From assembly GCA_000002445.1 (NCBI GenBank), contig CH464491.1, positions 3,584,001 through 3,648,000 on the forward strand: a stretch of DNA of 64,000 nucleotides. The letters are read 5' to 3'. Position 1 is the first letter of the stretch. Every line of letters begins with the position of its first letter. The notes under the pieces are model-generated. The model searched no databases, had not been told where the DNA came from, and was given only the letters and a program-made list of their open reading frames with translations. Below are positions 3,258 to 57,215 of this stretch, in pieces. Both the position numbers and the translations under genes were made by a program. The DNA comes from Trypanosoma brucei (lineage: Eukaryota).

Positions 3258-3848
3258 CTATTGCTCATATCCTGAGCTGAAAAACATCTGGCGGAATTCT
3301 AACAGATCGATTGTATCGTTCTCATCAGTTTCGAGGGAGGCAAGGACCTGCTCTGCCGCGACGACTTCATCATCACTTAGCTGAAGAGTTTTTTGCATGC
3401 CTGCAAGCAGCATTGGGATCGACTCACGGGGCATTCTTCCCTCACCGTTCATGTCATACTCATTTAAGACACTTCGAACGATATCATGATCTTCTTGGTC
3501 CGCAGGCAATGTTGTATCCATAACTTCAACGTCACATTGCCCACCCTCTGCGTGGCGGTCTAGAGTCCTGCATTCCCCTTCTTCCTCTATAAACCGCCCA
3601 TCCTTGTCAAAGGGTGCTGCTTGGCCGCAGAGAGCTGCAAAGAAATTGGCGCTGTACTTGTAAAGATCAGCCGGTCTATCCCTGAGGATTGCCTTGGTGT
3701 ACTGCTTCATAATTGTCCCCAACTCCGGGGGAACATTAACTTGTTCCACGCAAAAAATCGACTCCATGGCTGCCTTAACTAAAGCACTTCTTGGGCTTTG
3801 AAAATTAGATGGGAGTAACTGTAGTGAGGAATGAAACATACAACTCAT
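3258..3848 (-). CDS. RIIa (PKA regulatory-subunit dimerisation/docking)-domain protein with a C-terminal EF-hand-like loop. It is probably flagellar.
   Basis: The track ORF 3258..3878 starts on TTG, so I re-anchored to the first in-frame ATG at 3848. The segment PPELGTIMKQYTKAILRDRPADLYKYSANFFAAL fits the RIIa/DPY-30 helix pair. The C-terminal TDENDTIDLLEFRQMF resembles an EF loop. Confidence 0.6.
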   Translation of the reverse strand: MSCMFHSSLQLLPSNFQSPRSALVKAAMESIFCVEQVNVPPELGTIMKQYTKAILRDRPADLYKYSANFFAALCGQAAPFDKDGRFIEEEGECRTLDRHAEGGQCDVEVMDTTLPADQEDHDIVRSVLNEYDMNGEGRMPRESIPMLLAGMQKTLQLSDDEVVAAEQVLASLETDENDTIDLLEFRQMFFSSGYEQ

Positions 3849-4932
3849 GCGTACGTCCCGAAGTGCAATACCATTCAAAAATATGAGTCACGTCGGTAAA
3901 GAAAGTGAGAGAACAGATGACCTTCACCACAGCACTGTGATCGGCCTAATGACATACTAGTACCAGACAAATCATCGCTTTATGCTTTTGCGCGCACTGA
4001 ACGGCGACCGAAACTCGAATTTATACTTGACTTGTCCCCCCCTCAGAACAACCTTACCAAATATTAATGACCGCTCCCGCTTCCATCTATTTTATTTTTT
4101 ATTTTTTGCACACCATTCCCTCCTCCCCGACAGTCACATTACAGTGTTCCTGCGCGAAGCACCCAAGGATGCGATACAAGTGTACGTAGAATTCAGGATA
4201 CATTAATATCAACAAACGCCTTTCCTGGAGGGGAAGAGGGTGCACACATCTCGCGCGAGACTAGGAGACTACCCCCCGTTCGTTATTGTCGGACTACTGG
4301 GGCCACACAGAAAATCCAAAGGTAAACTGTCTGTGATTACGAATGGCGAGGCTAACAAACAAACAAGGGAGGCAGATACGAACCTGCACACAGTTTCCGC
4401 CATTCAGCAAGGCTCCTCGTAACATGTACGGGAGCTAGTTGAGTGGATAAAATGAGTGAGTTAGACCCCACTCCCCTTTTATTTAGTCACACTACGCGTG
4501 GGCCTGCAAAAATGACGTAAAACCAGTTACCGCCATGGGTGCACGTGCAGACAGAAAACACTGCAGGTGTACGGCATCCGAGTGTTTCGCGCCCCGTTGA
4601 GATGGATACTGTCCCGCAGATAGTTTATTCCACAAAACCCATAAAGTTCCAATCGCCTACATTCCCTAGTGAGCCCACCACATGTGAAACAGTGTAACAG
4701 GGCGTAATAAAGAAAGTCTTCAAGGGCGGTGCAGAATAGTGATTCAATTCGAGAAACTGCTTGATAACAGTATTGAAGAAGAGAATTACATATAACAGTG
4801 TAAACGGATGAGAATGCAGTGGGGTATCAAGGGTGTGAAAAACAAAGGCAAACAAAAACAGATAAGAAAGTTTTGAGAAATACGACCTCCAGGTTGTTAA
4901 CCTATGCCACGCAGAGCTGGTGAGCAGCGACA

Positions 4933-7197
4933 CTACTGGGAAAGGTGTGACAAAGTGGCTGCTTGATCTAACACAATTTGCTGTAGGCGTTCTTTGGATG
5001 AGAGGGCTTCTGACAGAGACGCTTGTGCCGCCTCCAACTCGGTCATGCACCTCTCCTTCGTGTCTCTCTCCCTCTGCAGCTGCTCCTGCACGGTTCGAAG
5101 TAAAGACTCCCTTTCTTGAAGGGCCACCTGGGCGGCTTTCACTTCTCCCTGAAGAGAGCTAAATTTTTCATCATGCTCGGATGACAACATTCCCCTTACA
5201 ACCAGGCGAGCGTTCGTATCTTCCAGCTCACGACATCGACGAGAATCTGCCTCGTATGCTGACTGCACGCCTGAAAAGTCGTGTTGTAGCGACTCGTACC
5301 GATGCTGAAGGAGCACACACTCGTTCTCTTTCAAAATGAGCTGCTTGCTAAGCTCAGCAAGGCTTTGTTGCAGCTCATCTGCGGCTCGATCTTTAGCCAA
5401 CGAAACTTGTTGCAATTCTTCGCAAGTTGTCTCTAGTTGAGCCACTCGGGACGTTGACTGCACGAGTTTCCGATGGAGTTGGTCGTTTTCATATTCGTAG
5501 GTCTGCAAATCGAGACAACTCTGTTGATCTCTGCGGTGGAGTTGACTAACTTGTTCCTGCAGGTATATAATGCTTTGCTCCTTAGAAGAAAGCGTTGCAC
5601 GCACTACCTCCAATTCGCGCTCTATCGTCCTCTGAGCATCACGCTGCGATTCAGCCTCCTTCACTGCATTTTGATAGGCCGAAAGAACTTCTTGCAACTC
5701 ACCGTCTTTCGCTTTGAGAGAATATGCAAGTTGAGTTTCATGCCGAAGAAGCCTTTGCTGCTCAGTGACGAGCTTCTCATTCTCGTTCGCTAATTGCCCG
5801 ACTTGTTGATTGCAGTAGTTTTTGTTTGCCACAAGTTGATCCATATCTCTTTGAAATTGCTGTAGTCGCTCCTCCATGCCCTTCTTCTCACGCTCGAAGC
5901 TAAAAGAGGATGCTATCAGCTGCTGTTTCTCATCTTCAACGTTTGCCAACCGAACATGTAGCTCTCGTTCTGACGCCGCGTACTGACTGCACTTTTGCTG
6001 CAGAGATCGCACCTGAAGGGACAGCTTTTCCGCGTCATCACTCAACAATCTCTTATGTTCAGCCTCCTCTTCTAGCCGTTTCTTTGTTACCTCAAGGATG
6101 GAAACGGTCTCTCCGTGGATAGCCGAAATGTCGTCTATACGGCCCCTCAAATCATCACATTCGGCGCACTTAATTTCCAGCATATGTGCCAAACTCTGCA
6201 CAGAATGGGTTGTAGGATCGTTCAACTGGTTGCACGAATCCACTTGACATTCTTTCGCAGCAAGAGGTACGACATCCGTTTGGACCGAAGAAGACACCTG
6301 AGGAAGAGTGTCAGTTTGTGTCTCCGTGTGGACCTTTTGACTACTCATTCCGCTACGTAAGTTAGCGAGCTCCCTGCGAAGCGACGACCTTTCGTCGGAC
6401 AAGACTTGAATGACTTCCTGAAGGCCTTTGATTTGTGCATTACTAACGGTATGTTCCTGCGATGCCACTTGCAGTGCTTCAGATGTCTCGTTTTTCCGCT
6501 CCTTAATAACAGCCTCTAATTTTCGGATTTTTGCCAGGAAATTGTTTTTCTCTATGAGTAAAGAACTTTTTTCTGATAGAGCGGTCGCAAGCTGGCTTTC
6601 AAGAGTTTTTGTTCGAGCAGCCATGTCTTCTCCATCAGCCAAGTGATTCTTCCGTCCTCTCAATTGTTCAGTTAGAAGGCGATTTTCCTTCTCCCGAAGT
6701 TGAAGTTTATCGTTATACTCTATGGTCATTACACGTAGTTCCTCTTTTCCCGCTGCGCGGACGGCGTTAACCTGTTGTTCTAGTCGTTCCACCTCATTGT
6801 GCAGGAAAGTAATTTGTGAAAGTAGATGAGCGGTATTACCGTCCGTTATGCTGTCCGGTTTTGTTTTTCCGTCCCCACTGCGTGATCTGAGATTCGAAAT
6901 TTCCTGTAAGCAAGCAGTGAGGTGTTTGTTCTTGTCGGCAAGTTGGTCCTCAAGTGCTGTAATGATAGCCGGGCTATCAACTTCCGGGGTTTCGTCAATA
7001 AGTTTCTGCCATGCCTTCTCGGGAAATGAGTTCAGACACTTGTTCAGTGTAACACGTTGCTGTCCAAAGCATAGGTCTGGCTTCGTAACGGACATGTGTA
7101 GATAATTTTTAAGCTGAGCAATCTCGACCTCTTGAGCTTCACATTCCACTCTCAAAGCCCGATTTTCGCTCAACACTACTTCATCGGTTGATGCCAT
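4933..7197 (-). CDS. large coiled-coil protein (hypothetical, 754 aa)
   Basis: Uninterrupted ATG ORF. It shows heptad-like E/Q/L/R-rich composition throughout, e.g. LEQQVNAVRAAGKEELRVMTIEYNDKLQLREKENRLLTEQLRGRK. Every plus-strand ORF across it is under 110 aa. Confidence 0.75.
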   Translation of the reverse strand: MASTDEVVLSENRALRVECEAQEVEIAQLKNYLHMSVTKPDLCFGQQRVTLNKCLNSFPEKAWQKLIDETPEVDSPAIITALEDQLADKNKHLTACLQEISNLRSRSGDGKTKPDSITDGNTAHLLSQITFLHNEVERLEQQVNAVRAAGKEELRVMTIEYNDKLQLREKENRLLTEQLRGRKNHLADGEDMAARTKTLESQLATALSEKSSLLIEKNNFLAKIRKLEAVIKERKNETSEALQVASQEHTVSNAQIKGLQEVIQVLSDERSSLRRELANLRSGMSSQKVHTETQTDTLPQVSSSVQTDVVPLAAKECQVDSCNQLNDPTTHSVQSLAHMLEIKCAECDDLRGRIDDISAIHGETVSILEVTKKRLEEEAEHKRLLSDDAEKLSLQVRSLQQKCSQYAASERELHVRLANVEDEKQQLIASSFSFEREKKGMEERLQQFQRDMDQLVANKNYCNQQVGQLANENEKLVTEQQRLLRHETQLAYSLKAKDGELQEVLSAYQNAVKEAESQRDAQRTIERELEVVRATLSSKEQSIIYLQEQVSQLHRRDQQSCLDLQTYEYENDQLHRKLVQSTSRVAQLETTCEELQQVSLAKDRAADELQQSLAELSKQLILKENECVLLQHRYESLQHDFSGVQSAYEADSRRCRELEDTNARLVVRGMLSSEHDEKFSSLQGEVKAAQVALQERESLLRTVQEQLQRERDTKERCMTELEAAQASLSEALSSKERLQQIVLDQAATLSHLSQ

Positions 7198-7401: not shown

Positions 7402-7959
7402 TCATCTTTCTTTGTTGAGAAACTCTGCCCGCTGTTTTGCGAACAACTCTTTCTCGAGTTTCTTAATACGCTTATTGTTATAACTCTCTGCCGCTACTAC
7501 CAGTACTGGCACTGTAATTAGGCCTAAACAACATCCACAAGCGAAAACAAGACCAACCTTCGCTGGGATGCGGTTCTTTGGGCTTCTAAAAGCGTACACG
7601 GCAGCAGCAAAACTTCCCACAATAATCCCCGCGTCCAATCCCCGTTGCATTGGTTCACAGGAAAGAAAGAATCGCCACTGCTGTGAAAGCGCTCTTCTCT
7701 TTGCATCCCCGACGTTGAGACCCTCCTGTTCTATTATGTACTGTTTGAGATCCTTGACTTCGGAATCAGGATAAAGCTTACCCCTGTCTCGCTCGTCCTG
7801 AATGGCTGACATCATTTCCAGTGTCTCCTTTTTAGCAACCTTGTACCGCCCACTTCTTATGAGGTCGTCGATATTGGTAGACTCATGCTCGGTTGCTACA
7901 CGGCCTTCCGAACTGATTTCATTTGGCTCTTGTTTCTGGGTGCTCTGAAGGTGACCCAT
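7402..7959 (-). CDS. small membrane protein with two C-terminal transmembrane helices (hypothetical)
   Basis: The track ORF starts on TTG at 8055. The in-frame ATGs are at 8040 and 7959. A pyrimidine tract followed by AG on the minus strand (revcomp of ~7985-8011) lies between them, so I favour 7959 (MGHLQSTQKQEP...). The C-terminus has two hydrophobic helices (GIIVGSFAAAVYAF and VGLVFACGCCLGLITVPVLVVAA) separated by a short basic loop. Confidence 0.55.
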   Translation of the reverse strand: MGHLQSTQKQEPNEISSEGRVATEHESTNIDDLIRSGRYKVAKKETLEMMSAIQDERDRGKLYPDSEVKDLKQYIIEQEGLNVGDAKRRALSQQWRFFLSCEPMQRGLDAGIIVGSFAAAVYAFRSPKNRIPAKVGLVFACGCCLGLITVPVLVVAAESYNNKRIKKLEKELFAKQRAEFLNKER

Positions 7960-8445
7960 AGTACTACGTGACAACGGTAAAAGAAAAAAGAGGAAGATAT
8001 TGCCAATCACAAGGAAGCATGCATCGTGGTGGTAGCACATAAACAACAGTAACAAAAGATGCGCGAGATACCTCTACTCTTAAGAACATAGTATATTCAT
8101 TCGCTGCATGCAGATACTCATCGCCCGCCATTACCTCCCAAAGCATAGTGAACGCATGCACAACATGAGCGGTATTAAACGGCGACGAAAGGGGTTCAAA
8201 TAGCCGCTGATGCTTGTACCAAAACAAACAAGCGTACAATAATGAAATAATGGGGGGAAAACAACCGACGGCATTTTCAATCGCTAAAAACCGTCACGTT
8301 ACAACACGGACTCTTCGTGCACGGTTGTGACAGCTAATATATTATGACATCAAGAGTGGCAGCAAAGATAAGGTAACAGCATCCCAATAAAGTGAGGGGA
8401 AAACGGGGTGATGATGCACCCGCACCGAATATCAAACAATTTACA

Positions 8446-8455
8446 GGGGGGGGGG
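8446..8455 (+). repeat. G10 homopolymer
   Basis: Read directly: acagggggggggggtgtaa. Confidence 0.95.
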
Positions 8456-10909
8456 TGTAATCCCATAGACTCGCATAATGGAAGACACGCTCTAACAAAT
8501 ATATTTCACGTACTGTTGTTACGATACACATGAGAAAAAAATTCGGGGTAGCAGTTCAGGGCAAGCAAAGAGTCGCACGGAATGAGAGAGAATGGGAAAG
8601 AGATATCCCTCGCTACGTATTGGCCGTGCCTTGGCAAACAGGGGCGATGTATCTTTGACAAAACCGGTGAATAGGGGTCCACATCTCATAATCGGCGAAA
8701 CAACGGCCGGGTGCTACAAAATATGAATCACCAGAACAACTATTTGGTCGACGCAACCACTTGTTTATCATACCTTTCGGAGCGGTACAGGAAAATGTTT
8801 CAAGCAGAAAACAGATCCCTTTTTACGCAGAGCAACATATTACTTGCCAAGTGACAAAACAACCACGGCACCACCACCTATTATAAACGATTGATGATTC
8901 ATTAAGCATGATAAACTAAAGTTTTTACTGGTGAAGAATCAATTAACCATTACGTTGCAGCATATGTCGCAAAGCACATAAATGCCCCCATTTACATAAA
9001 TTTCAGGAAAAAAAAACCAACCCTCTCTAGGAACAACCCCCGGTCGTCGAGCCGCCAGCAATTAAACTTATCGCAGGCGGCACCTTCATATTGGAAGGGA
9101 AGGAGACAAACTGATAACCGATAACAACATTACAGGTGTCTGACACAACCCACAAAAAGTAAGCAAACCGTGCGACACAACGATGACAGCACATCGAACA
9201 CAAAAAAGAAAAAAAATAAACACAATCAAAGAGAAGCAAAGGAAACACCGAAAAACATTTGGTGCTCACCAGAGGGGGTTGGTAGAAAAGTAAACAGCCC
9301 CCGAGGTAGCATTTCGCTATTGTCTGCTTAGTATTGAGATAATAACAGTCTTCTAGTAGTGGCTTGTAGGAATAATACGCGCGACGATTCTCTTTCAAAG
9401 TGTTGGCAAGCTAACTCGGTTCCAAAAGAGGACCGAAGGAGCGAATCAACAACGAGGGCAAATTACTTAGAGTATATCCATCTGTCCTGAATCCGACGGT
9501 AAGTCACACATATGCACTTTAAAAGGCTCCTCGAGTATCGGCAGGGGGCTCGGAACGCACTTGCTCTCAACGACCTAACCAATCAGAGACCACGAACTAA
9601 GAAAAAAAAAGGGTGCCACAATAATGTAAAAGAAGCAGATTTGCCAGACCGCTCATTGAGTCGAAAGATATTTGTACCGTTTGCCGTACAGATAGTTCAT
9701 CGGTATCCGACATACTCTTCCGGGATCGCAGCGCATGCATTGCCATCCATTGATAAATCGTAATCGATGCAATCGCCACTAACGGCCGCAATTAAGAGAA
9801 TCAGCTCTCCACTATCTAAACTCTTAAGAACATAACCAACACAGCGTAGACAGCTCCCTCACGGGGACACCGGACCCATATCGAGCATCAATTGACTCCC
9901 ACACACAACCCTATTCACTGTAGCCAACACAGGCATTCCCATATTGACGGACCGCTATGATCGAGTAACATTCTTAACGCCGAAACGGTGAGGCACAACC
10001 CACGAAAATATAAAACAACACCCCCTTAGGAATGAGCCAGCAGGCCTCCGGTGCGAGCGCACAAAAAACCCAACGGAACATCCCCCGAATAACCGGCCGA
10101 ACAGCGGCGTCAACCCGCGGCATCGGGGTCTCTCAACAAAACAAAGGACGCGCCAGCATTCTTCATTTGAGAACCGAGCCCTCCGATACCAAGAAATGGG
10201 AGGCGACCCATGGTCCACCGGGTGGGCACACCAGAGTCTGATCCTGCGATTGAAACCCCCGCCCCGCGTAAGGGATCTCCCCAAGAGGAAGCAAGCGATC
10301 CACAGCAAAGGACAGACTCCTCCAGCCCCACCCCCACACGAGGTGGAGTCGGTGTCCCCCTCCCTACTCCGAAGTAAGTGCAAGCACTCTTCACCGGGGG
10401 AAGAGGGCGGACAGCCGAATGTGGAGCCCTGCCACGGACTAGCCAACAGCACCGAAGGCTACATGACTAGTAGCGCATCTGCACGAGCGGCACCGCACCG
10501 GGTGTTAAAAACTGTAGACCGTATGGGTCGTGGGGGAAAGTGGCACCGCAGGGGCGTAGGGTCCCGTTTTTTCTTCTCGCATTGCGGTGTCAAGCCCTCC
10601 CCTCCATGTGCGCCGCGTTTCTGCAACTGTAGGACCCCCACTGGGCCCGCCGGCGCCACCGGTGCTCGCTATCGGTTGCTTGGTGTGTATGTGTCCTTTC
10701 CCAGTCTTCGCACTTTGGGGTGTTCACGTATGGTTCTGGCGGTGCCGGCTCCGCCGTGGCGGGAACGATCCGCTAGGCGGGCAACGGCGTTGTTGCAGTT
10801 TTGCTACTTGGGTGATGGCGGACCGTCTGTTTGTGTATGAGCGGAAGTTTTTACTCGCGCTAGCGCATTTGGCACACCGCCTTTGGGATGGTCAGAAGTT
10901 TTTGCACGC

Positions 10910-10924
10910 GGGGGGGGGGGGGGG
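10910..10924 (+). repeat. G15 homopolymer inside the GC-rich island of the strand-switch region
   Basis: Read directly: cacgcg then 15 g then atgcg. A C8 run follows at 11088-11095 (tagtcccccccctccc). Confidence 0.95.
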
Positions 10925-12111
10925 ATGCGTTCTGAATTGCACTTTTCCTGTGCATCCGTTGAGGTCGGCTATTTTCAGGGTTGGTTGGTCGTTTGCAACT
11001 TTTGCCATCCGTCGGGTAACAAATTGCCATGTATTTCAGGGAGGTGTGCGAGTCCGAGGATGGTGCGGTGTGTCATGTTGCTGTAGTCCCCCCCCTCCCA
11101 AATGCGGAGGAGCTTGTAGCGTGGAATGAGTTTGCTCAATTTACGTGGTAGCCTTGTTTTTGTGTATCCATATGTAGGGGAGGAGCTGTCAGCAACCCTT
11201 ATGGCCGGAGAGCATACACAGTCAGTACACCGAGGTTGAATGCAGTTGGGGAGCTCTCCGGTTCGATTACAGCGTGGATGCAAGTTGTTGTTTTTGTTCC
11301 CGTGCCCCCATAGTCGTGAAGTTGTGTTGCTCAAGCGCGCTGCGACAGAGTAACTGATGAATCTTTTATTGTACTAAACCTATGTAACCGCCCCTCCTCC
11401 GCAATACACAAAAAAGAGCCACCTTGCAACTAGCTCCGAAAATCGGACTAGCTTTTTTCAGACGTATGCGTTGCCCCACGCTGATACACGGGTTCCGAAT
11501 GCGAGCTATGTCAAGCAACCTTTGTTTAAGTTTGTGGTTGCACCTTTGTAATGCGCCATCGTGGCTATGTGGTTATGCGACCACCTCGCCAGCTGTAGGC
11601 GTCTCCTCTCCCTCATGACCCAAATTTTTGGGATGGAGCGACGGGACGTTGAGTTTTTTTGTTTGCTTAGAAAACATTACTGTACAGCGCTCCACAGAAC
11701 TACGCAGTAGCATCTCCCTGTGGCTGAAGATATCAATTTAGCCGTTAGTGTAAGGTTGGAACCTCAGGTGTTTTGTTATCACGTTTCGGTTCCTTGCGCC
11801 GAGAATTTCCGCGAGTAGAGGTGCCGGTTGTGAATATTTTGTTGCGTAGTTCTATCTTACTGCCTTATCCACATGCTTTAACAGCAGCACCCTAGTGCAA
11901 AGCGAAGTAGGATTTGTGCGCCCCTGAGACAGTGCAGCACGATATGACATTCATTTGTGAAGGTGATGTGGAGGAGAAACCAACAGGTTCCAGTATCGCA
12001 ACCTCTCATATCGGGTGCCAGCAGTTTTGAAAGAACCACCACTGCTGCTGCCATCGGATGTTGTAGACTTCCTATTTGTAAGTGAAGGTGCGGTTTGTTC
12101 GTTTCCCCTAC

Positions 12112-12127
12112 TTTTTTTTTTTTTTAG
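12112..12127 (+). promoter_or_regulatory. T14 polypyrimidine tract plus AG. It is the probable SL trans-splice acceptor for ODC.
   Basis: cttttttttttttttttag at about 155 nt upstream of the ODC ATG. This is the classic trypanosomatid acceptor context. Confidence 0.5.
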
Positions 12128-12282
12128 AGACCGCGGGGAGGGCTTTCCTTGCTTCCCAGAAATATTATGTTTAAACACGCATGTGCGTCGGTAGCAAGCC
12201 TGGTAAAATTTGTCTGTACCATTTCCAATGAAGCGGTAGGGAAAGAGGCGGTACTGGGGAGGGATTAAGCAGTAAGGCAAAT

Positions 12283-13620
12283 ATGACCACCAAATCAACC
12301 CCCTCTTCTCTCTCTGTGAATTGTCTTGTAGCACAAACGGAGAAATCTATGGACATTGTCGTGAACGATGACTTGAGTTGTCGCTTTCTTGAAGGGTTTA
12401 ATACGAGGGATGCCCTCTGTAAAAAGATCAGTATGAATACGTGTGACGAAGGTGATCCGTTTTTTGTTGCCGATCTCGGGGACATTGTAAGGAAGCACGA
12501 AACATGGAAAAAATGCCTTCCCCGCGTCACGCCGTTTTACGCGGTCAAATGCAACGATGACTGGCGCGTACTTGGAACGCTGGCGGCTCTCGGCACGGGA
12601 TTTGATTGTGCTAGCAACACTGAGATACAACGTGTGAGAGGCATTGGTGTGCCACCGGAAAAAATAATATATGCGAACCCTTGTAAACAAAATTCACACA
12701 TACGGTACGCGCGTGATAGCGGCGTTGATGTCATGACATTTGATTGCGTGGATGAACTGGAAAAGGTCGCTAAAACGCATCCAAAGGCAAAGATGGTATT
12801 AAGAATTTCTACGGATGATTCGTTGGCTCGATGCCGTCTCAGTGTGAAGTTTGGTGCAAAGGTGGAAGACTGTAGGTTTATCTTGGAGCAGGCAAAGAAA
12901 CTGAATATCGACGTCACTGGTGTGAGTTTTCACGTGGGAAGCGGATCTACAGATGCCTCTACCTTCGCTCAAGCCATATCTGACTCCCGTTTCGTTTTCG
13001 ACATGGGTACTGAGCTTGGGTTCAATATGCACATTCTTGATATCGGTGGTGGGTTTCCAGGGACGAGGGATGCACCACTTAAATTTGAAGAGATTGCTGG
13101 TGTCATCAACAATGCGCTGGAAAAACATTTTCCACCTGACCTCAAGCTTACCATTGTTGCCGAGCCGGGAAGGTACTACGTTGCTTCAGCTTTCACACTT
13201 GCCGTAAATGTTATTGCCAAGAAGGTGACACCAGGGGTTCAGACCGACGTCGGTGCCCATGCTGAATCAAACGCACAGAGTTTTATGTATTATGTGAATG
13301 ATGGCGTGTATGGTTCATTTAATTGCATCCTGTATGACCACGCAGTCGTCAGGCCTTTGCCCCAGAGGGAGCCAATCCCCAATGAAAAGCTCTATCCCTC
13401 AAGTGTATGGGGTCCCACATGTGATGGTCTTGATCAGATAGTTGAACGATACTATCTTCCCGAGATGCAAGTGGGGGAATGGCTGCTCTTTGAGGATATG
13501 GGTGCCTACACGGTCGTAGGAACTTCTTCCTTTAATGGATTCCAGAGTCCGACTATTTACTATGTAGTCTCCGGGCTACCAGACCATGTTGTCCGGGAGT
13601 TGAAAAGTCAAAAATCATAA
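12283..13620 (+). CDS. ODC: ornithine decarboxylase (PLP-dependent, alanine-racemase fold)
   Basis: 445-aa ATG ORF. It is essentially identical, as far as I can recall, to the published T. brucei ODC ([26 protein letters not shown] ... PFYAVKCND ... [35 protein letters not shown] ... [16 protein letters not shown]). It includes the ~20-aa N-terminal extension, and an alternative internal ATG sits at 12349. It has the PLP-binding lysine motif (FYAVKCN) and the CDG active-site motif. Confidence 0.95.
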
Positions 13621-14763: not shown

Positions 14764-14775
14764 GGGGGGGGGGGG
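14764..14775 (+). repeat. G12 homopolymer in the ODC-GRESAG4 intergenic region
   Basis: Read directly: gtatag, then 12 g, then cggctgccgcg. Confidence 0.9.
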
Positions 14776-20283: not shown

Positions 20284-23200
20284 AAACCACTCCACGAACT
20301 AATGACAGGGGAAGGAATCGTGAGGTAAGCCCATTTAGGGGCCTACCGATGTAGGGCAGTGTAGTTAATAGAATGCTATTACTTTTCCCCCAGACTTTTG
20401 AAAACGCTTACGGTGACGGCGTGTGATTTGTTTTAAACCAGTTTTCGCTAATAATTTTGTCACTGCGCCGCTCAGGGATGTGAGATTGTATACTGTGTGG
20501 CGTACCCCTTCGGCAGTGGCAATAAGCGTTCGACCTTCACCCGTGACCGCAGACTGTCGCGCCGGTGGAATATGTGATTTTTTGTTTTTCTTCCTTCCTT
20601 TCTTTCTTTTTTTTTTTCCTGAGCGTACGCGATTTACTCCATACGGCGGCAACTTTTTCCTTATTTATATGCATATATATATAAATCGTACCCTAAAGTT
20701 GTGCACGTGCTATTTGCATATATTTGTTTTTTTGTCATTGGTCTTCCAGCGGTGAATACGCGTTTACACCTTTAACGTGCAAAGATTGCATGCCTAACTC
20801 TGTGTCAAACGTGTTATCGCAGGGAACACTCCTTCTTGGTACCAAACACTTTCGTGTGTTGGGGCGTATCGCCGCGTACCTTCCATGCACCGCTCATATC
20901 TCGGGGCATTGTTATTTTTTAAAGACATCGATCGTATGACTTTAGTGAGTGTTATGACTTTCGTTTTTCTCGAGCTTCCGTGTTTACCTCCTGCCGTTGT
21001 CGTTATTTTTGACATTTGTTTCACTAATTCTCCTATTATTATGTTACATGGGTTAGCCCAGCTGCGAGAGCCACCGCGCCCTCGCTACAATTTCTTCTCC
21101 CGCTTCTCGGCTGCCCATCCACCAAGCAAAACCTATCGAGCAATATGAAGTGGGTGTGTACCATGCTAAGTTTGTTGTTCGGTTTCGCGGCGCTGCAGCC
21201 CCTAGTTTCTCTGATCCTCTTTAAGTTTCAGCAGGCCTTCTCCCTTCACTCCTTAGGCACCTGTATTATAGTTTGTCGCACGGCAACGGCAGTTGTGTAT
21301 ACGCTGCCGTCGTAATCGGTGCACGTTATCACTGGGTGTGGTGTATCCGGCCAATCTTGCATGTTAGGGTGCATTATCCCGTATTAGTTCCCATGGTGTT
21401 TAGTAAGTGAAGCAACGCAAGCACCATTGTTTCAGCCGAGCTGCTGGGGACGATTATGTCTTGGCCCTTGTGGAACACTTATGTTTTAAACGTTTTTAAT
21501 ACGAGGCAACGTAAGTATTCGTACCCCAAGAGAAACCTCGTTGCCCACCAGTCAGTTTTTTCCTCGGCGAAGTAGTGAACGCATCCCCCATCCTGTCGAC
21601 AATGCTTGTGGAGAGGCCCACTCATAATTGTGTGATGACGCGCAGTGCCTTCGTATTGATGTCTTCACTGGTGCGGGCGGGGCCGATTCTCAAGGTCCGA
21701 GGGTCACTAAGCTATTCAGCACGTATTGTGGGCTCTTTTTTCTCCCCACTGAGCTGCGTGAAACGCCTGCAACCCCGCACGGCTATAATATCAACCCCAT
21801 GACGTAGAGCAGCCTGCGGGAGGAGTCTTTTCGCGTTTTTGCGTATGGCAGTTGAGCCACCCGTGACGAAGCTGTGTCTGACCCAGGAAATGCGATTTAG
21901 CCTTCGGTCGAGGGAGTTCACTGTGGTTATGAACGGTACTGATCCAAAAACTGACCTCCGCGTTGCCCCGCAGGTCATGGAAATAGTTTCTAGCCATGTG
22001 TTGCTAACTGTATAAGGAGTGTTCCACCAAACCAGTTAGGTGGGGTTATATTTTGCATTGACTTAGTGCCACGATGATTTACACATGATCCGCCGATTCG
22101 GACGTTCTTGTATAGTTTGCATGCCTCCGCTTCTTTTTGTTTCTTCACCATATTTCACCAAACAGCTGTGTCACAGCATTTGCTGTTGAGTGTTTGGAGC
22201 CCTGACTGTTCTGGCTCAAGTAAGTTGTCGAGTTGATGCTTCAGGTTCCTTACAATCATCCTTTCCATTAGCTTGCAGAGGGCACTCATAGGGTCAGTGG
22301 CCGGGACGATGCGCCTTTGTTGCGTGTTCGTTTGGCTGAAGGGTTGGTATTATAACGTCCCTTCTCCTCTGTTCTAGCATTTTGCACGCTTCATACGGTG
22401 CTTAAGCATCCCTAGTAAGCATTCTCTCCTGGAACCACGGCCACTGTACATAAATTGGCCTGGTGCTAACTTCGGTTCTCCCAGGGTAAACCGTTTGGGT
22501 TCACAATTCCTCATGCTTGGTTGTTTCGTCCTTGAAGCTTCTGCCGTCATTGTCAACCCCTTCCTGCACATTTCCAGAATCACGTCCTCTTAACTTTGTC
22601 AATGGGTGTGCATTAACAACTGCTACTGTACTGGTCGATGGCCTCGTTGCAAGCACCGCATTCACTAGGTCGCAGCTTTCGGGTTCTGTGATCCCTGCTC
22701 CCAGTGTTGTTTTCCTTCATTTGACGGTCGTTTCTGTAACCACACCTCTAATTTTGTGTATCTTCGCTAGCTTTCCCCCTTTCCCTCTCTTTTAACATTC
22801 CTTTTCCCTATCTTCTGGGAGCCTGCGGAAGGAATGGTCAAGCCTTTACGCACTGTCAGGTAAGATAAAATAACCATTATAATCCTTGTTTTCGTATCAC
22901 ACCTAAGATAAGTATCGCAAAGAGTGAGTTTTTAAAACGCCCACCCAACCCAACTGTCACCGCCTCCGCACCAGAGCCGGGTAAGGTCATTTCCAGCACT
23001 TTCCTTATCGTCGGTAAATTTACTTCCATATATTTGAGGACTCGCATTTACCAACAATACCCTTTCCCCAACGATGCAAACGATGGATATGATAGCCACG
23101 ACAAAGGTTGAAATTATTAAGTTTCCCGCTCTTTTTCTTCCATTTAACGCAGAAAGACAGGGTAAAGATAATTCAGATTTGTTAGTTCCTACGTCCGGAA

Positions 23201-23796
23201 ATGTGGCACACGCATGTTGCCTTTAGTTACCTTTTCTCGTTCGGTTCCATTTTCGCTAAAAAAAAATAATACGGGTTTACTCACCTCATCCACTTCTCTC
23301 GGAGAACATTTCGGCATTTTCTTTTGCTCCCACGCGTAGGTTTACCGTTAAAATGTTGTCACTTTTATCCCACGCGACTAATGCCGTGCGGTGGCCACAG
23401 TAATTAACTTTGGCATTCGCGTCGATGCCTGTTTCGGTTGTGATTCAATTGCGATCGGTGATTGAATTCAGTTTTGAGATTCAGCCTCTTACCCAACGTT
23501 CTCTGGTCGTGGCCACTCCTGGCGGTGGGGCCCGTTTGCGCTCGATTTTTTGTTGTTTCCAGTTGCGGTAAGTGTGTAGGGGCAAATGTAAATTTGCATC
23601 CCTTGGTTGTGCATTAGTTTAGCCGATATCCCCTTATGCTCTCCTCTTCGTGGGTCGTTTGTTACGCCCGTATTGTCCCTGATCCTGTATCGGCGCCCGT
23701 AAGCGCTTGAAAGAGTGCGCTTTTCCGATGTTCCGGAATCTAGATGTCATTTTGCGGTCTGCTTATTCACTGTGCTGGTGTGGTTTCCCTAGAATG

Positions 23797-23831
23797 TGGA
23801 ATACCCCCTCCACAAAAGAGAGGGGGTATTC
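23797..23831. repeat. perfect 13-bp inverted repeat (hairpin) with a 9-nt spacer
   Basis: ggaataccccctc cacaaaaga gagggggtattcc. The arms are exact reverse complements. Confidence 0.9.
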
Positions 23832-25982
23832 CAACGCGATTCTTTCGGCTGCAAGAACTATTCTCGTCTAAATCGGCGTCGCGATGTGCACGTAGCCTAA
23901 TTTGCGTTATTTCAACGGAGCTGTGCGACCTCAGGGGCGGTTTCGGCCACAGGAGCCAATGCGGACACACCCTTTTCAGCCGAGGGGGCGCAAGGTCGTT
24001 GCCGCCTCCCCTTTCCGTAGTAACTGATAACCGTCCGCCCACCCCATTGGAAAGGACTTGGACGCATGGAGATGCTCAGCTTTGTTCGTGACGATGCACT
24101 GAGCCCTCATGCCGCTTTGGGGGTGGATTCCCCCGTCATGAGCTGGCGGGTGCGGGCTGAATTGGGTATTAGTCCAGTGGTGCGCGCCCCTCTTGGGGTG
24201 ATGCGGACATCTGCTTCTCGTTTGGTGAGGGCGCTGCAGCTGTCATTTGTTTGAAACGCTGGGAGGCAACCAGGGCCCGCGGGGTTGTCAACTGAGGCGG
24301 CGCCGCCTTTGGTCGCGACGTGGTCACATGCGCGCACCCAGTGGTTACTGGACACCGCCCGACTTTGGTGTGCACTTCCGCTATGGACAGGGCAGGTTGG
24401 TCATACGTGTGTTTCCGGGATGGGCGGACGAGAGTGACTGTTTTCCGGCATCTACCTTGAAGGCAAAGGCTCCACGATATTTTGGAAAACGGTACGCGGG
24501 GGACATCTTTCGTGGCCATTGGGGAGGTGGTTCGCCACTTCTTTAATGCCTCTGGTGGCCAGGTTGGGGTCCACATCAGGTTTTGTGAGAACGTACTTGA
24601 TCAGGCGGTATCACCCCCTTTTTCCGCCACTGCTTGCGTATCTTCGGTGATGGAGCAGCACCCCGGCGTCTGCGGCCACGGGCCTTTTTGCAGGGATCTT
24701 CGCACATGTGACAGCAAATGCACTCTCAGTGAAATACGCGGAGGGTTGGGTATGTTTCTTGAATGTTCTGTGCGACCTACTGTCAAGTTTGAATCGTTTA
24801 CAGTTCTAGTTTGTTCACTAGATGTGTCAGTTAGCACGACTTCCCTCCTTTTTGTGCCCATTAAAATTATTCATTAGAAACCACCACTTGTTGCTCTGTT
24901 TTAGTCCGGCACCGCTCGTTGACGCATTGGTTGACCTGCTTTCTTGGTCGCTTGCCCGGGTACCATCGCCCTGGCAGCAGACAAGCCACCCCCTCGAAGT
25001 GTCGTTGTATGATTTAGCACTTACTTATTGCGACTGTTCGAACATTGCTTTTCTTTTCAGAAGGTCCGCATCGGCTGCACGGCAGTGCTTTAGCTATTTT
25101 GAGTCAGTGCATGTGTGGTTTCCACCACCTCGGTGTACGTGCAGAGGGATGGCACTCGGTGATGGGGGTCGCGGGTGAATAAAAGACGCATTTAGCTGAT
25201 AGTTTCAAAGAAAACGTTCGAACCATATATACATTTTTTGTGGGTCAAACACAAATTTAAGTTTTGCGTTACTATATTTTCGGACAGTAATCAGTATGCC
25301 AACTATTGTCCCCTCGGAGGAAGGATGCAAGTACTTTTTGTTACCATTTCACTCTGTACCTTGCGTGCAATATTTAGATGCGCTTTCCATTTTTTTTTTT
25401 AGAAATTCTTGCTCCCACAATGCGCCGATAACACGGTGTTGCCCTTTGGTCTGAGGGGAAGACGGAAGGGTATAGAAAGGCCCTCTCATGAGGGAATTTA
25501 TGGGGAATTATGTACAGTGCGGCGTAGCATCGTGGTTCCATGTATTGCGTTTATGACATACGAGAAGGGACCTACCATGTATGTGTTTAGGAACGAGGTT
25601 ATGTGGGAGAATGTACACATTTTGGGGGCAACTTGATTTTTTTTTTTTACCTTCCCCCCTGTGCCTGCACCTCATTTTTGTGTACGTCGAGCGTATTAAG
25701 TTGTTTTCATATACATTCTCTAAGTTTCTGTTCCGCATTGTTTCTATTTACATTCTGGACGACACGGTTTATCGGCCAAGGCGTTGCATAAAATTTGATG
25801 ACCGCAGTGCCGGCGCCCCAAAACCCTTTTCCGCATTAAGGATTTTTCTTACCAAAGAATGTTCCGCGGCGAGAGCACAATCTGAAGCAGTTAGTTATTA
25901 CTTTTTTCTTACCAACATTTCATTCGTTTTATTAACTTTTTCACTGTTTCCACCCATTTAGAGTTCTCGGAGTAGTTCAACC

Positions 25983-55766: not shown

Positions 55767-56399
55767 GCAGTGGGGGATATATTTATATATTTCTATATTT
55801 CTATATTTGTATATGTGAGAGAACGTATGAAAGTTGAGGGAAGCGGAGGGAGCGAAGGGAGGGGAGGAAAAGAAAAAAAAAGAAGAGCAAAACAAGGATA
55901 AGGGGGGAATCGCTTTTCTTTTTCTTTTTTGTGTTTTATTTATTTATTTTTCCAGATGACCATACAGACATCACATCTACCCGGAGTGAAGTTAGAATTC
56001 AGTGAAGATAAACCCTTATGCAATTTCCTCTATAGGTGGATGCATATGCATAAGAGAATATATACGCGTACATCTATGTATCGGCTAATTAGCGCAGTCA
56101 CCCCGTCAAAGGGGAATAAAGAAAAGTGAAAGGAAAGATGTGAGGAAAAAGTTAAGCAAGGGAGATAAAGTATTAGACAAATAAAGGAGAAGGGGGAGGT
56201 GGAAAAGAAAAAAAAACAAAGGAAGTGGAATATTTGTCGGTCGAAGTGCTTTCTTTTGCCTCTTTTTTTTTGTGTGTTATTTAGGGAAACTCGCAGCCAC
56301 ACTCATTTCTTAGTTGCATGGTCCTTTGTATGTACACATATTTTTTAACAGCACTCGAATGCCATGTTCAACTTGCTTTTTTTTCTTCTCTCCTTGCCT

Positions 56400-57215
56400 A
56401 TTTCACACTTTCATTGTTTTTGTTCTCGTCTGTTTGTTTGACTGTTTCTGATTGCTTTTGATGCGTCGTTGTCGCCAATCAGCACTATTTCTCTATGCCT
56501 TTTTTCTTTCTTTCTTTCTCTTTCTCTTTCTCTTTCTTATATTCCGTTTCTTTTCTGTTTGCTTGTTGTTTTTTCCTCAAGTTATTGTTGCTGTTCCAGT
56601 TCTTCACCTAACTTCCCTTCTTCACTCTTGTTTTTGTTAGGAACTCGAGTCTTTTTTTTTCTTGACATTATGTGATGCTTTCCCCCTCTCGTTTTTTTTG
56701 TGAAGTATCTCATCATTCTCAGTTCTTCTTTTTTTCTTTTTTTTATTCCTCCCCATTTATTTAATTTGTTTGCGTTTTTAGTTTTAGTTTCGGTTTTTTT
56801 CCTTTCTTTTTTTTCTTTTTTTCTTTTTTTCTTTTTACTGTTGTTTGTTTATACTCCTTCTCTTGGTCTTTGTTATTATTGTTCAAGTTGGGACCTGCGT
56901 GCCACTCTACACGTTGGGGCACTGCCTTTAGCGCCTCCCGGCACGTTATATACAGATTTTTTTAAAAATTTCGTGTGTGTTTAAAGAACAGAAAAGAAAG
57001 AAAAAAGGCGGAGGGAGAGGGGATAGACGCCTTTAAGTTCCCCCCTCCCCCCGCAAAAAAAAAAAGGAAAAAGGGAAAAAGAAAAAAAAGAAAAAGGAAA
57101 AAAAAAGGAAAAGTTAACAAAATGTTAAAAAAAAAAGTGAAATCGAAATTTGATGTGTTTATCAGTATGCAGAGGGAGGGAAAAAGTGGAGAAACCGAAG
57201 GGAAAATAAGGATCC
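56400..57215. repeat. Strand-asymmetric low-complexity block. It is about 480 bp C/T-rich, then about 230 bp A/G-rich.
   Basis: 56400-56880 is almost purely pyrimidine on the plus strand (ttcttt, tctc repeats). 56985-57215 is almost purely purine (aaagaaaaaaggaaaaag…). TA-rich (tatataaa)n sits at 57224-57270 and (tttg)4 at 57271-57287. Confidence 0.85.

Follow-up and report, generated by a model that had tools for sequence, protein, structure and literature searches.

What marks the places where Pol II begins to transcribe a trypanosome chromosome? Trypanosomes have few places at which transcription could be controlled. Pol II start regions belong to these, and the debate over what in their sequence determines them continues, with dispersed GT-rich elements set against discrete promoters. 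The question has a practical side at the gap upstream of ODC, the target of eflornithine, which heads a two-gene unit and has the promoter region directly upstream. We analysed this gap within 64,000 nucleotides of Trypanosoma brucei DNA (hereafter the window). Exact matches to the TREU927 proteins EAN80314-80317 place the window on chromosome 11 of T. brucei brucei TREU927, and the identity of ODC is backed by PDB chains. The Tb927_11_01_v4 coordinate equals the window coordinate plus 3,584,000, an offset that is constant across the v4 coordinates of three genes.

A sequence-only reading had proposed that the gap is a strand-switch region with mirror-image GT skew and a probable Pol II start zone. 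Our analysis leaves little doubt that the interval is a divergent Pol II transcription start region, extending from Tb11.01.5280 (Tb927.11.13710) to the ODC gene. This reading is supported and already known, correct but ordinary: the region was catalogued in 2010, when Tb11.01.5280 to 4720 (minus strand) and Tb11.01.5300/ODC to 5310 (plus strand) were listed as a "Divergent" pair (Kolev 2010 Table S14). That table is headed "putative" Pol II transcription units, and the flanking genes are its first genes as defined by 5'-triphosphate RNA-seq. The locus is a clean textbook example that adds no new kind of element; what is mildly new is confined to its GC island, whose composition is exactly mirror-symmetric. 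The features discussed below are collected in Table 1.

Table 1. Features of the divergent interval and its surroundings, in window coordinates
Feature	Position	Strand	Description
First leftward spliced-leader acceptor	7964-8003	-	AG at 7965-7964 and polypyrimidine tract (purine run on the plus strand)
G10 run	8446-8455	+	Non-coding strand of the leftward unit; within the outer left arm
Outer left arm	8700-9699	-	Plus strand A-rich (A.36) and C-poor, giving a T-rich leftward coding strand; skew to -0.29
Inner left arm	9700-10499	-	Coding strand G.330, T.290, C.228, A.152
GC-rich island	9851-11150	.	Up to 62.2% GC; window mean 47.6% (sd 4.4)
Tb11.01.5290 (Tb927.11.13720)	10196-10840	+	"T. brucei spp.-specific" hypothetical, 214 aa; straddles the skew switch
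C-run cluster	10311-10344	-	G-rich minus strand, G4Hunter -1.8; candidate G-quadruplex/G-tract on the leftward coding strand
Inner right arm	10500-11400	+	Coding strand G.329, T.289, C.230, A.152 over 10500-11299
G15 run	10910-10924	+	Rightward coding strand, 411 nt from the skew switch
C8 run	11088-11095	+	Conserved in all three Trypanozoon genomes; minus-strand G4Hunter -1.6
First rightward spliced-leader acceptor	12300-12331	+	Polypyrimidine tract, AG at 12330-12331
G12 run	14764-14775	+	ODC-adenylate cyclase intergenic region, rightward coding strand; G4Hunter 2.16

Flanking transcription units and first splice sites

Two polycistronic clusters read outward from the common gap, with credible ORFs on the minus strand to the left of 7959 and on the plus strand to the right of 12349. 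As had been proposed, all ORFs of at least 180 aa before about 8000 (1908-2927, 3258-3878, 4933-7197 and 7402-8055) are minus-strand, and from 12283 on all are plus-strand except three shadow-type ORFs. The flank limits of 8055 and 12283, however, are not coding starts. They lie too far upstream, and the mapped spliced-leader acceptors fall inside the annotated ORFs: the 5' end of the leftward transcript is at 3591963 (window 7963) and that of the rightward transcript at 3596332 (window 12332; Kolev 2010 Table S1). The true first coding starts are the ATG of Tb11.01.5280 at 7959, a 185-aa form of which is annotated in T. equiperdum, and the ATG of ODC at 12349, which yields the 423-aa protein found in SwissProt and T. 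equiperdum. The annotated start codons of ODC and Tb927.11.13710 are thus set too far upstream and should be corrected. A T14 tract at 12112-12125 lies upstream of the first rightward polypyrimidine tract. Ahead of the TM-protein and BRCT genes, the leftward unit starts at a position that is conserved in both T. cruzi and T. theileri; the same probably holds for T. vivax.

Mirror-image composition and a GC-rich island

Calculating GT skew in sliding 500-nt windows showed that the proposed mirror image is real. The skew reaches -0.28 at 8751-9250 and -0.26 at 9751-10250 on the left, and +0.25 at 10501-11000 and +0.24 at 10751-11250 on the right; when oriented by transcription, these values rank in the top 0.8-1.6% against a background of windows from outside the interval (mean 0.072, sd 0.074). 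The cumulative GT curve of the entire 64 kb bottoms at 10499. An A/C-rich left arm exists, as had been claimed, but it spans about 8700 to 10499 and is not confined to 9000-9300; that spot is mainly A-rich, and it is the inner left arm that truly mirrors the right arm. Over 0.8 kb each, the coding-strand compositions of the two inner arms are equal to about 0.002. The strings quoted earlier as G/T-rich are present in the right arm, at 10674-10696 and 11044-11060. The symmetry is compositional only: a search for an inverted repeat between the arms found none, and k-mers shared between them did not exceed the expectation from composition (z 0.1-1.7). Skew alone is not diagnostic, because GT skew of comparable size also occurs in other T-rich intergenic regions of the window.

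The switch lies inside the 1.3-kb stretch of highest GC in the 64 kb, in which the GT/AC skew flips at 10499/10500. A second GC island (23751-24750) sits at an internal head-to-tail start region and is a one-sided version of the same composition, without a strand switch. Both catalogued start regions in the window thus coincide with islands of about 1 kb and 60% GC with like strand-specific composition; the only other stretch of at least 56% GC is coding sequence. At the orthologous start, T. vivax carries a 3.3-kb GC-rich block with junk-like ORFs. Compared with T. b. gambiense, the interval shows 1.62% divergence against 1.10% for other intergenic DNA; since it diverges at least as fast, we see no discrete promoter element that is conserved.

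The island could be the physical bidirectional core promoter, and such skewed islands a general, scorable signature of Pol II initiation in African trypanosomes, but we regard this reading as unlikely. The signature may then consist of about 60% GC with coding-strand G>T>C>>A, one-sided at internal start regions. If general, skewed GC islands would offer a sequence-only predictor of start sites and would point to a mechanism driven by composition, akin to that of CpG islands and complementing the GT-rich 10-mer model.

Homopolymer runs, 10-mers and G-quadruplex potential

The G10, G15 and C8 runs lie exactly where the sequence-only reading had placed them, and C8 is indeed within the rightward arm. 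Only three G runs of at least seven occur in the 64 kb (at 8446, 10910 and 14764), all on the plus strand and at most 4.3 kb from the skew switch. The idea that the runs mark the inner edges of the arms does not hold for G10, which has the first leftward splice site about 480 nt away and the switch at a distance of 2 kb. G10 is also broken in T. b. gambiense DAL972 (G5AG2) and is probably incidental. G15 is a G14 in DAL972, and in T. equiperdum an assembly gap falls at that place. G12 may lie inside the broad start region. The region around the C-run cluster (10240-10380) is invariant in TREU927, DAL972 and T. equiperdum.

The G10 word, which occurs six times within G15, is by a wide margin the most enriched 10-mer in the 5' fifth (region 1) of start regions, with 132 coding-strand against 17 non-coding-strand occurrences (Wedel 2017 Dataset EV1). 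The coding-strand 10-mers of Wedel 2017 are strictly oriented at this locus: at 8700-10499 all seven lie on the minus strand, five of them in the inner left arm at 9700-10499, and at 10500-11400 all nine lie on the plus strand. Both arms together hold 16 in the predicted orientation and none in the opposite one. With the synthetic GT_210/GT_416 elements (Wedel 2017, EMBO J), the inner arms share an enrichment in coding-strand 10-mers, including G10, TGTGTATGTG, TGTGTGTGGG and TTTGTTTTGT, that is confined to the predicted orientation, whereas the natural arms are far sparser in these 10-mers (4-10 per kb) and more GC-rich.

The suggested G-quadruplex potential is highest at G15, which scores the highest G4Hunter value of the window (2.44) and is the only site fitting the canonical pattern (at least four G3+ tracts with short loops). 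Otherwise the potential is only modestly above the window background: G4Hunter values of at least 1.5 occur at five interval sites, against about 1.6 expected from the window average, three on the plus strand (8433-8461, 10895-10939 and 12238-12264) and two on the minus strand (10311-10344 and 11075-11105). Published work finds that start sites are enriched in R-loops and in G4 ChIP signal.

Gene content of the gap and alternative explanations

The gap had been described as having no credible ORF. Strictly, one ORF is annotated there, Tb11.01.5290, but every coding test says that it is not a real gene. If it were instead a fast-evolving Trypanozoon-specific gene, the first of the rightward unit, the gap would shrink to about 2.2 kb and the start zone would lie to the left of 10196. 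Its annotation in TREU927, DAL972 and T. equiperdum speaks for this, as does the rarity of an ATG ORF of at least 214 aa in first-order Markov simulations of the GC island (just 2.2%) and the lack of any indel between TREU927 and DAL972. We nevertheless consider a real gene very unlikely indeed. Among 5.8 billion proteins, the ORF has no homologue outside Trypanozoon; it has no Pfam match and is listed without detectable transcript (Kolev 2010 Table S2). Divergence from DAL972 is 2.2% (0.2-0.7% in neighbouring genes), with three synonymous against 11 non-synonymous changes, and the DAL972 form has lost the stop codon and extends to 300 aa. GC at the three codon positions is flat (.60/.61/.62), without periodicity, and the codon-frame score (+0.12) is under those of all 15 real genes (+0.18 to +0.46). 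The ORF also spans the skew inversion, with its first half on the A/C-rich side. We judge that it evolves neutrally and is non-coding; Tb927.11.13720 is almost certainly no gene, and the annotation should be amended. A conserved gene hidden in the interval would have contradicted a start zone, and no real protein or RNA gene was found: the interval holds no tRNA and no Rfam match at gathering score or at E<=1, and no novel transcript is listed for chr11 3,592,040-3,596,283 (Kolev 2010 Table S7). The GC-rich core might alternatively be a decayed mobile-element or pseudogene relic that lies in the gap by chance, given that 60-62% GC is unusual for non-coding DNA of T. brucei and that the GC-rich block of T. 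vivax occupies the orthologous position. This is highly improbable: protein homologues are limited to the locus's own orthologues, only low-complexity runs resemble other parts of the window or the orthologous loci, tandem and inverted repeats are absent, and no relic was found in the interval of the 341-aa gene present here in T. cruzi and T. theileri. Nor would a single relic be expected to flip its composition exactly in mid-island.

Two further explanations accept the skew and differ on its cause. The mirror image could be a passive footprint of transcription- or replication-coupled mutation or repair asymmetry that enriches the non-template strand in G and T; the locus would still be a start region, with the start point fixed by chromatin or other factors and the GT arms not causal. 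Equal mutational pressure on either side predicts the near-identical arm compositions, and the arms share no motifs beyond composition, the interval evolves no more slowly than other intergenic DNA, a weaker positive coding-strand GT skew (mean 0.07) runs through both gene clusters, and the orthologous strand-switch regions of T. cruzi and T. theileri change skew sign alike without sequence similarity. These points make a passive origin possible, if on the doubtful side, for the skew is concentrated in a sharp peak no more than about 1 kb from the switch and is not spread evenly over the units, the G15 and G12 homopolymers are far beyond chance expectation, and synthetic GT-rich elements suffice for directional transcription and H2A.Z deposition (Wedel 2017). 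The switch point could also be a replication origin or ORC1/CDC6 site, with the inversion reflecting leading/lagging-strand bias. The sharp minimum of the cumulative skew looks like an origin signature, and according to the summary of Briggs 2018, ORC1/CDC6 is reported at all strand-switch regions, of which about 45 fire as origins; the same summary makes active origins a minority of strand-switch regions. We find this explanation quite improbable, in that the skew is strongest less than 1 kb from the switch and falls to the ordinary coding-strand level, unlike replication skew, and the one-sided island at the head-to-tail start without a strand switch fits transcription rather than replication. 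An origin here would be compatible with a divergent Pol II start region.

Proposed mechanism and comparison with known systems

A divergent Pol II start zone with GT-rich coding-strand arms, as originally proposed, is supported by the catalogued divergent pair (Kolev 2010 Table S14), the orientation of the 10-mers and G15. We infer exact start positions and a causal role of the arms from sequence features, as follows. Pol II would initiate dispersedly within the inner arms, leftward at about 9700-10499 and rightward at about 10500-11400. The G/T-rich coding strand and the G and T homopolymers may disfavour canonical nucleosomes, and the arms may bias the direction of initiation and promote deposition of H2A.Z/H2B.V, by analogy with the synthetic GT-rich elements, which are sufficient for orientation-dependent transcription and H2A.Z deposition (Wedel 2017). 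The first trans-splicing of the primary transcripts would take place at 7963 for the leftward unit and at 12332 for the rightward one, which would comprise two genes only, ODC and an adenylate cyclase, before a second, internal start region is reached. A start region of this type would be expected to show enrichment of H2A.Z, H2B.V, H4K10ac and BDF3; in the SPARC study, SPARC and RPB1 give one or two narrow peaks.

Under the model of sequence-specific 75-bp Pol II core promoters (Cordon-Obras 2022, Cell Rep, as summarised in later work), two opposed direction-specific promoters would be expected in a divergent region; no conserved block stands out in the interval. According to the SPARC study, the motifs of Cordon-Obras 2022 are not found under most RPB1/CRD1 peaks. 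Mammalian CpG-island bidirectional promoters resemble the locus in their GC-rich island of about 1-1.5 kb, in dispersed initiation (predicted here) and in an excess of G over C on both non-template strands downstream of the centre; in T. brucei, positive GC skew does not obviously dictate R-loops (Briggs 2018). Unlike in mammalian CpG islands, CpG observed/expected here is about 0.84-0.98, not above the window value of 0.93, and the T. brucei units are polycistronic and trans-spliced.

In Leishmania major, studies of chromosomes 1 and 3 reportedly found a divergent switch with homopolymeric G:C tracts near the mapped start sites. The parallel is with another genus, lacks sequence similarity and is set against a much higher background GC in Leishmania.

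The closest counterparts are the other divergent start regions of T. brucei (Siegel 2009; Kolev 2010; Wedel 2017), from which this one differs in nothing essential. They share clusters that diverge from a gene-free gap of a few kilobases, coding strands that are G/T-enriched and carry G runs at their 5' ends, the lack of a conserved discrete motif, and first trans-splice sites at the edges. The gap here carries no protein, tRNA, snRNA or rRNA genes, unlike the start types located next to tRNA, snRNA or rRNA genes. Its local particulars are the single central mirrored GC island, the spurious ORF over the switch, the stray G10 on the non-coding strand and the two-gene rightward unit.

Divergent strand switch and base composition

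The gap between the two divergent gene clusters of the window is a strand switch without a gene, containing a central GC island whose outward strands are G/T-rich in mirror image and a G15 run on the rightward coding strand, and it is already listed in the literature as a putative divergent Pol II start. Credible ORFs lie on the minus strand left of ~8000 and on the plus strand from 12283 rightward, the layout described in the sequence-only reading. The mirror-image GT skew proposed there was reproduced in 500-nt windows (-0.28 at 8751-9250 and -0.26 at 9751-10250, then +0.25 at 10501-11000), and over the full 64 kb cumulative GT reaches its minimum at 10499. Taken along the direction of transcription, the skew of the arms ranks among the highest 0.8-1.6% of all 500-nt windows that lie outside the gap (background 0.072 +/- 0.074). 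T-rich intergenic stretches elsewhere in the window reach similar GT values, so the skew by itself is not unique to the gap. Indeed, the strongest skew of the window (+0.39, 33% GC) lies at 56300-57000, a T-rich intergenic or 3'-UTR stretch that is not a start region; promoters are therefore not identifiable by GT skew alone.

What is unique to the gap is the skew combined with high GC. The inversion falls inside the highest-GC stretch of the window, which reaches 62.2% GC against a window mean of 47.6% (sd 4.4), and the true mirror pair is formed by the two inner arms, whose outward strands have closely matching base composition (see table). The A/C-rich spot at 9000-9300, previously taken as the leftward arm, is part of a zone farther out in which A predominates (A.36). 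The symmetry of the arms is one of composition only. Searches for inverted and direct repeats gave short matches at chance level alone, so no palindrome underlies the mirror image. Reverse-complement k-mer sharing between the two arms (z 0.1-1.7) did not exceed composition-matched simulations, and the internal island at 23751-24750 likewise had nothing in common with them beyond composition. Additionally, a tandem-repeat search returned only the G15 run and one A-rich 9-mer, and CpG observed/expected was not elevated.

Features of the window discussed in the text (window coordinates)
Feature	Position	Strand	Description
Tb11.01.5280, annotated N-terminal extension	7960-8040	-	27 codons
G10 run	8446	+	
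Left arm, outward strand	9700-10499	-	G.330, T.290, C.228, A.152
GC island, bidirectional	9851-11150		up to 62.2% GC
Tb11.01.5290, 'T. brucei spp.-specific protein'	10196-10840	+	214 aa in TREU927 and T. equiperdum, 300 aa in DAL972
Right arm, outward strand	10500-11299	+	G.329, T.289, C.230, A.152
G15 run	10910	+	G4Hunter 2.44
ODC, annotated N-terminal extension	12283-12348	+	22 codons
ODC, annotated ORF	12283-13620	+	445 aa
G12 run	14764-14775	+	G4Hunter 2.16
Second ORF-free gap	20756-25982		5.2 kb, inside plus-strand cluster
GC island, one-sided	23751-24750		0.8-1 kb, 56-62% GC; G.32, T.25, C.26, A.18

Homopolymer runs and G-quadruplex potential

The G10, G15 and C8 runs are positioned exactly as first reported. 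Besides G10, G15 and G12, no G run of at least 7 occurs in the 64 kb; the plus strand carries all three, none of them more than 4.3 kb from the skew switch. The G10 run had been placed at the inner edge of its arm; its actual distance from the switch is 2 kb, and for the leftward unit it is on the non-coding strand. In T. b. gambiense G10 reads G5AG2, G15 is G14 and C8 is the same. The G12 run, located between the ODC and adenylate cyclase genes, may be part of the broad start region. In the T. equiperdum OVI assembly, N-gaps coincide exactly with G15 and with the A-rich run near 9200 (L001 8549-8579 and ~6853-6870, corresponding to window 10888-10925 and 9184-9209). The coincidence suggests that short-read assemblies break at these homopolymers, whose lengths in draft genomes are therefore unreliable.

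The canonical G-quadruplex pattern occurs in the gap at G15 alone, which also gives the G4Hunter maximum of the window. Scores of at least 1.5 occur at five sites in the gap, including a minus-strand site at 10311-10344, against ~1.6 expected from the window average. The predicted scores are thus compatible with the earlier suggestion of a G-quadruplex at G15, with only a modest enrichment.

Starts of the flanking genes

Genome coordinates were taken from the tables of Kolev 2010. The v4 positions of Tb11.01.5280, 5290 and 5300 equal the window position plus 3,584,000 in three of three cases, and exact-sequence look-up of the window ORFs recovered the TREU927 proteins EAN80312 and EAN80314-80317, the exact matches including the ornithine decarboxylase (ODC, Tb11.01.5300), a 754-aa BRCT protein and the 214-aa hypothetical Tb11.01.5290. 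The constant offset and the protein matches therefore identify the window as Tb927_11_01_v4:3,584,001-3,648,000. The ODC ORF also matches PDB chains 1njj, 1f3t and 2tod at E ~1e-296.

Spliced-leader acceptor sites map to 3591963 (window 7963) and 3596332 (window 12332), both inside the annotated flanking ORFs (Kolev 2010, Table S1), and both show an AG and a polypyrimidine tract in the sequence. The real start codons are therefore at 7959 (185 aa) and 12349 (423-aa ODC), forms that agree with T. equiperdum and SwissProt annotation, and the first splice sites of the two units are 4.37 kb apart. The annotated N-terminal extensions of both genes are non-coding because the acceptor sites fall downstream of the annotated ATGs; that of ODC is really the polypyrimidine tract and AG. 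The JBP1 gene (Tet_JBP and DB_JBP1 domains; L002/L003 18407-20935) lies ~8 kb left of the window start and belongs to this leftward polycistron, with a few genes between it and the divergent start region upstream.

Coding potential of the gap

The view that the gap holds no credible ORF was upheld by coding tests of Tb11.01.5290, with the caveat that databases annotate this one, and a hidden conserved gene was not found. Outside Trypanozoon, a search of 5.8 billion proteins gave no homologue of Tb11.01.5290, and Pfam found no domain in the six ORFs of the gap, this one included. Compared with DAL972 (T. b. gambiense), it carries 14 substitutions in 645 nt (2.2%), 3 synonymous and 11 non-synonymous, including loss of the stop codon, whereas neighbouring genes diverge by 0.2-0.7%, mostly at synonymous sites. 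Its GC content is flat across codon positions (.60/.61/.62), and its codon-frame score (+0.12) is below those of all 15 real genes of the window (+0.18 to +0.46). Markov simulations of the island produced an ORF of this length in 2.2% of runs, a frequency that is mildly unusual at a single locus and unremarkable over ~150-200 start regions. Furthermore, Tb11.01.5290 is among the ORFs with no detectable transcript (Kolev 2010, Table S2), and the gap has no novel transcript in Table S7 of that study. That the ORF is free of indels was considered as an argument for coding and rejected as not significant, with ~1.8 indels expected. Scans for tRNA and tmRNA found none, and Rfam searches were likewise empty, both for the whole window at gathering score and for 7900-12400 at E<=1.

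Evidence for a Pol II start region and alternative explanations

The reading of the locus as a probable Pol II start zone agrees with Kolev 2010, who catalogued it as a putative divergent Pol II start. Wedel 2017 reported that coding-strand-enriched 10-mers cluster in the 5' fifth of start regions, G10 being by far the top one (132 coding vs 17 non-coding), and that synthetic GT-rich elements give orientation-dependent transcription and H2A.Z deposition. When the window was scanned with the 157 10-mers of that study, 8700-10499 contained 0 on the plus and 7 on the minus strand, and 10500-11400 contained 9 on the plus and 0 on the minus strand, over a background of ~0.5-1.8 per kb. Later work describes two core promoters of opposite orientation in divergent regions, narrow RPB1/SPARC peaks that share no common motif, and R-loops and G4 ChIP signal at start sites. 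A full-text literature search found no mention of the gene IDs of the locus, and the G4 ChIP and SPARC supplements have no entries for its genes. The element type, the compositional signature and this very locus are already in the literature; the finding is correct and known.

We infer that initiation would be dispersed across the two inner arms, favoured by nucleosome-unfriendly G/T homopolymers and H2A.Z deposition; strand composition would set its direction, and the first processing events would occur at the two mapped acceptor sites. In the main rival reading, which is not exclusive of a start region, divergent transcription may have left the skew as a passive mutational footprint. The exact symmetry of the arms, their lack of motifs and the fast evolution of the gap fit this rival; the gap differs from DAL972 by 1.62% (70 substitutions, 12 indel events) against 1.10% in other intergenic DNA, a difference that is not significant; this comparison shows no sequence constraint in the gap. 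The rival is weakened by the sufficiency experiments of Wedel 2017. A replication origin is a less likely explanation of the gap, as are a real gene, despite the database annotation, and a mobile-element or pseudogene relic; tblastn with the 341/342-aa membrane protein of T. cruzi and T. theileri and with other neighbours found no relic there.

A second catalogued start region in the window

The second ORF-free gap corresponds to an 'Internal' Pol II unit that starts at Tb11.01.5320 (Kolev 2010), so the ODC-side unit is only two genes long. The composition of the island within this gap is that of the right arm. Both catalogued start regions of the window thus coincide with ~1-kb, 60% GC islands of like coding-strand composition, a coincidence seen at these two regions that we did not find described in the papers examined.

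Comparison with other trypanosomes

Synteny of the leftward-side genes for the TM protein and the BRCT protein extends to T. cruzi, T. theileri and T. vivax. For the first two of these species, the unit begins just upstream of the two genes, where GT skew changes sign. A blastn search of the gap against the rest of the window and the T. vivax, T. cruzi and T. theileri loci matched poly-A/T runs only. The orthologous strand-switch region (T. cruzi L006/L007 1-9250; T. theileri L008 1-7900) is a synteny break at which the leftward unit is kept and the opposite side is lineage-specific, with RHS, DGF-1 and DUF7578 in T. cruzi, GP63 in T. theileri, and ODC and adenylate cyclase in T. brucei. In both T. 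theileri and T. cruzi the first gene, which separates the TM-protein gene from the switch, encodes the 341/342-aa membrane protein; T. brucei lacks this gene. Upstream of the orthologous TM-protein and BRCT genes of T. vivax, a 3.3-kb block of 56-64% GC (L004 2750-6250) stands out from surrounding DNA of 30-40% GC. Databases annotate two ORFs in the block, of 246 and 298 aa, and their translations resemble GC-driven junk, much like Tb11.01.5290.
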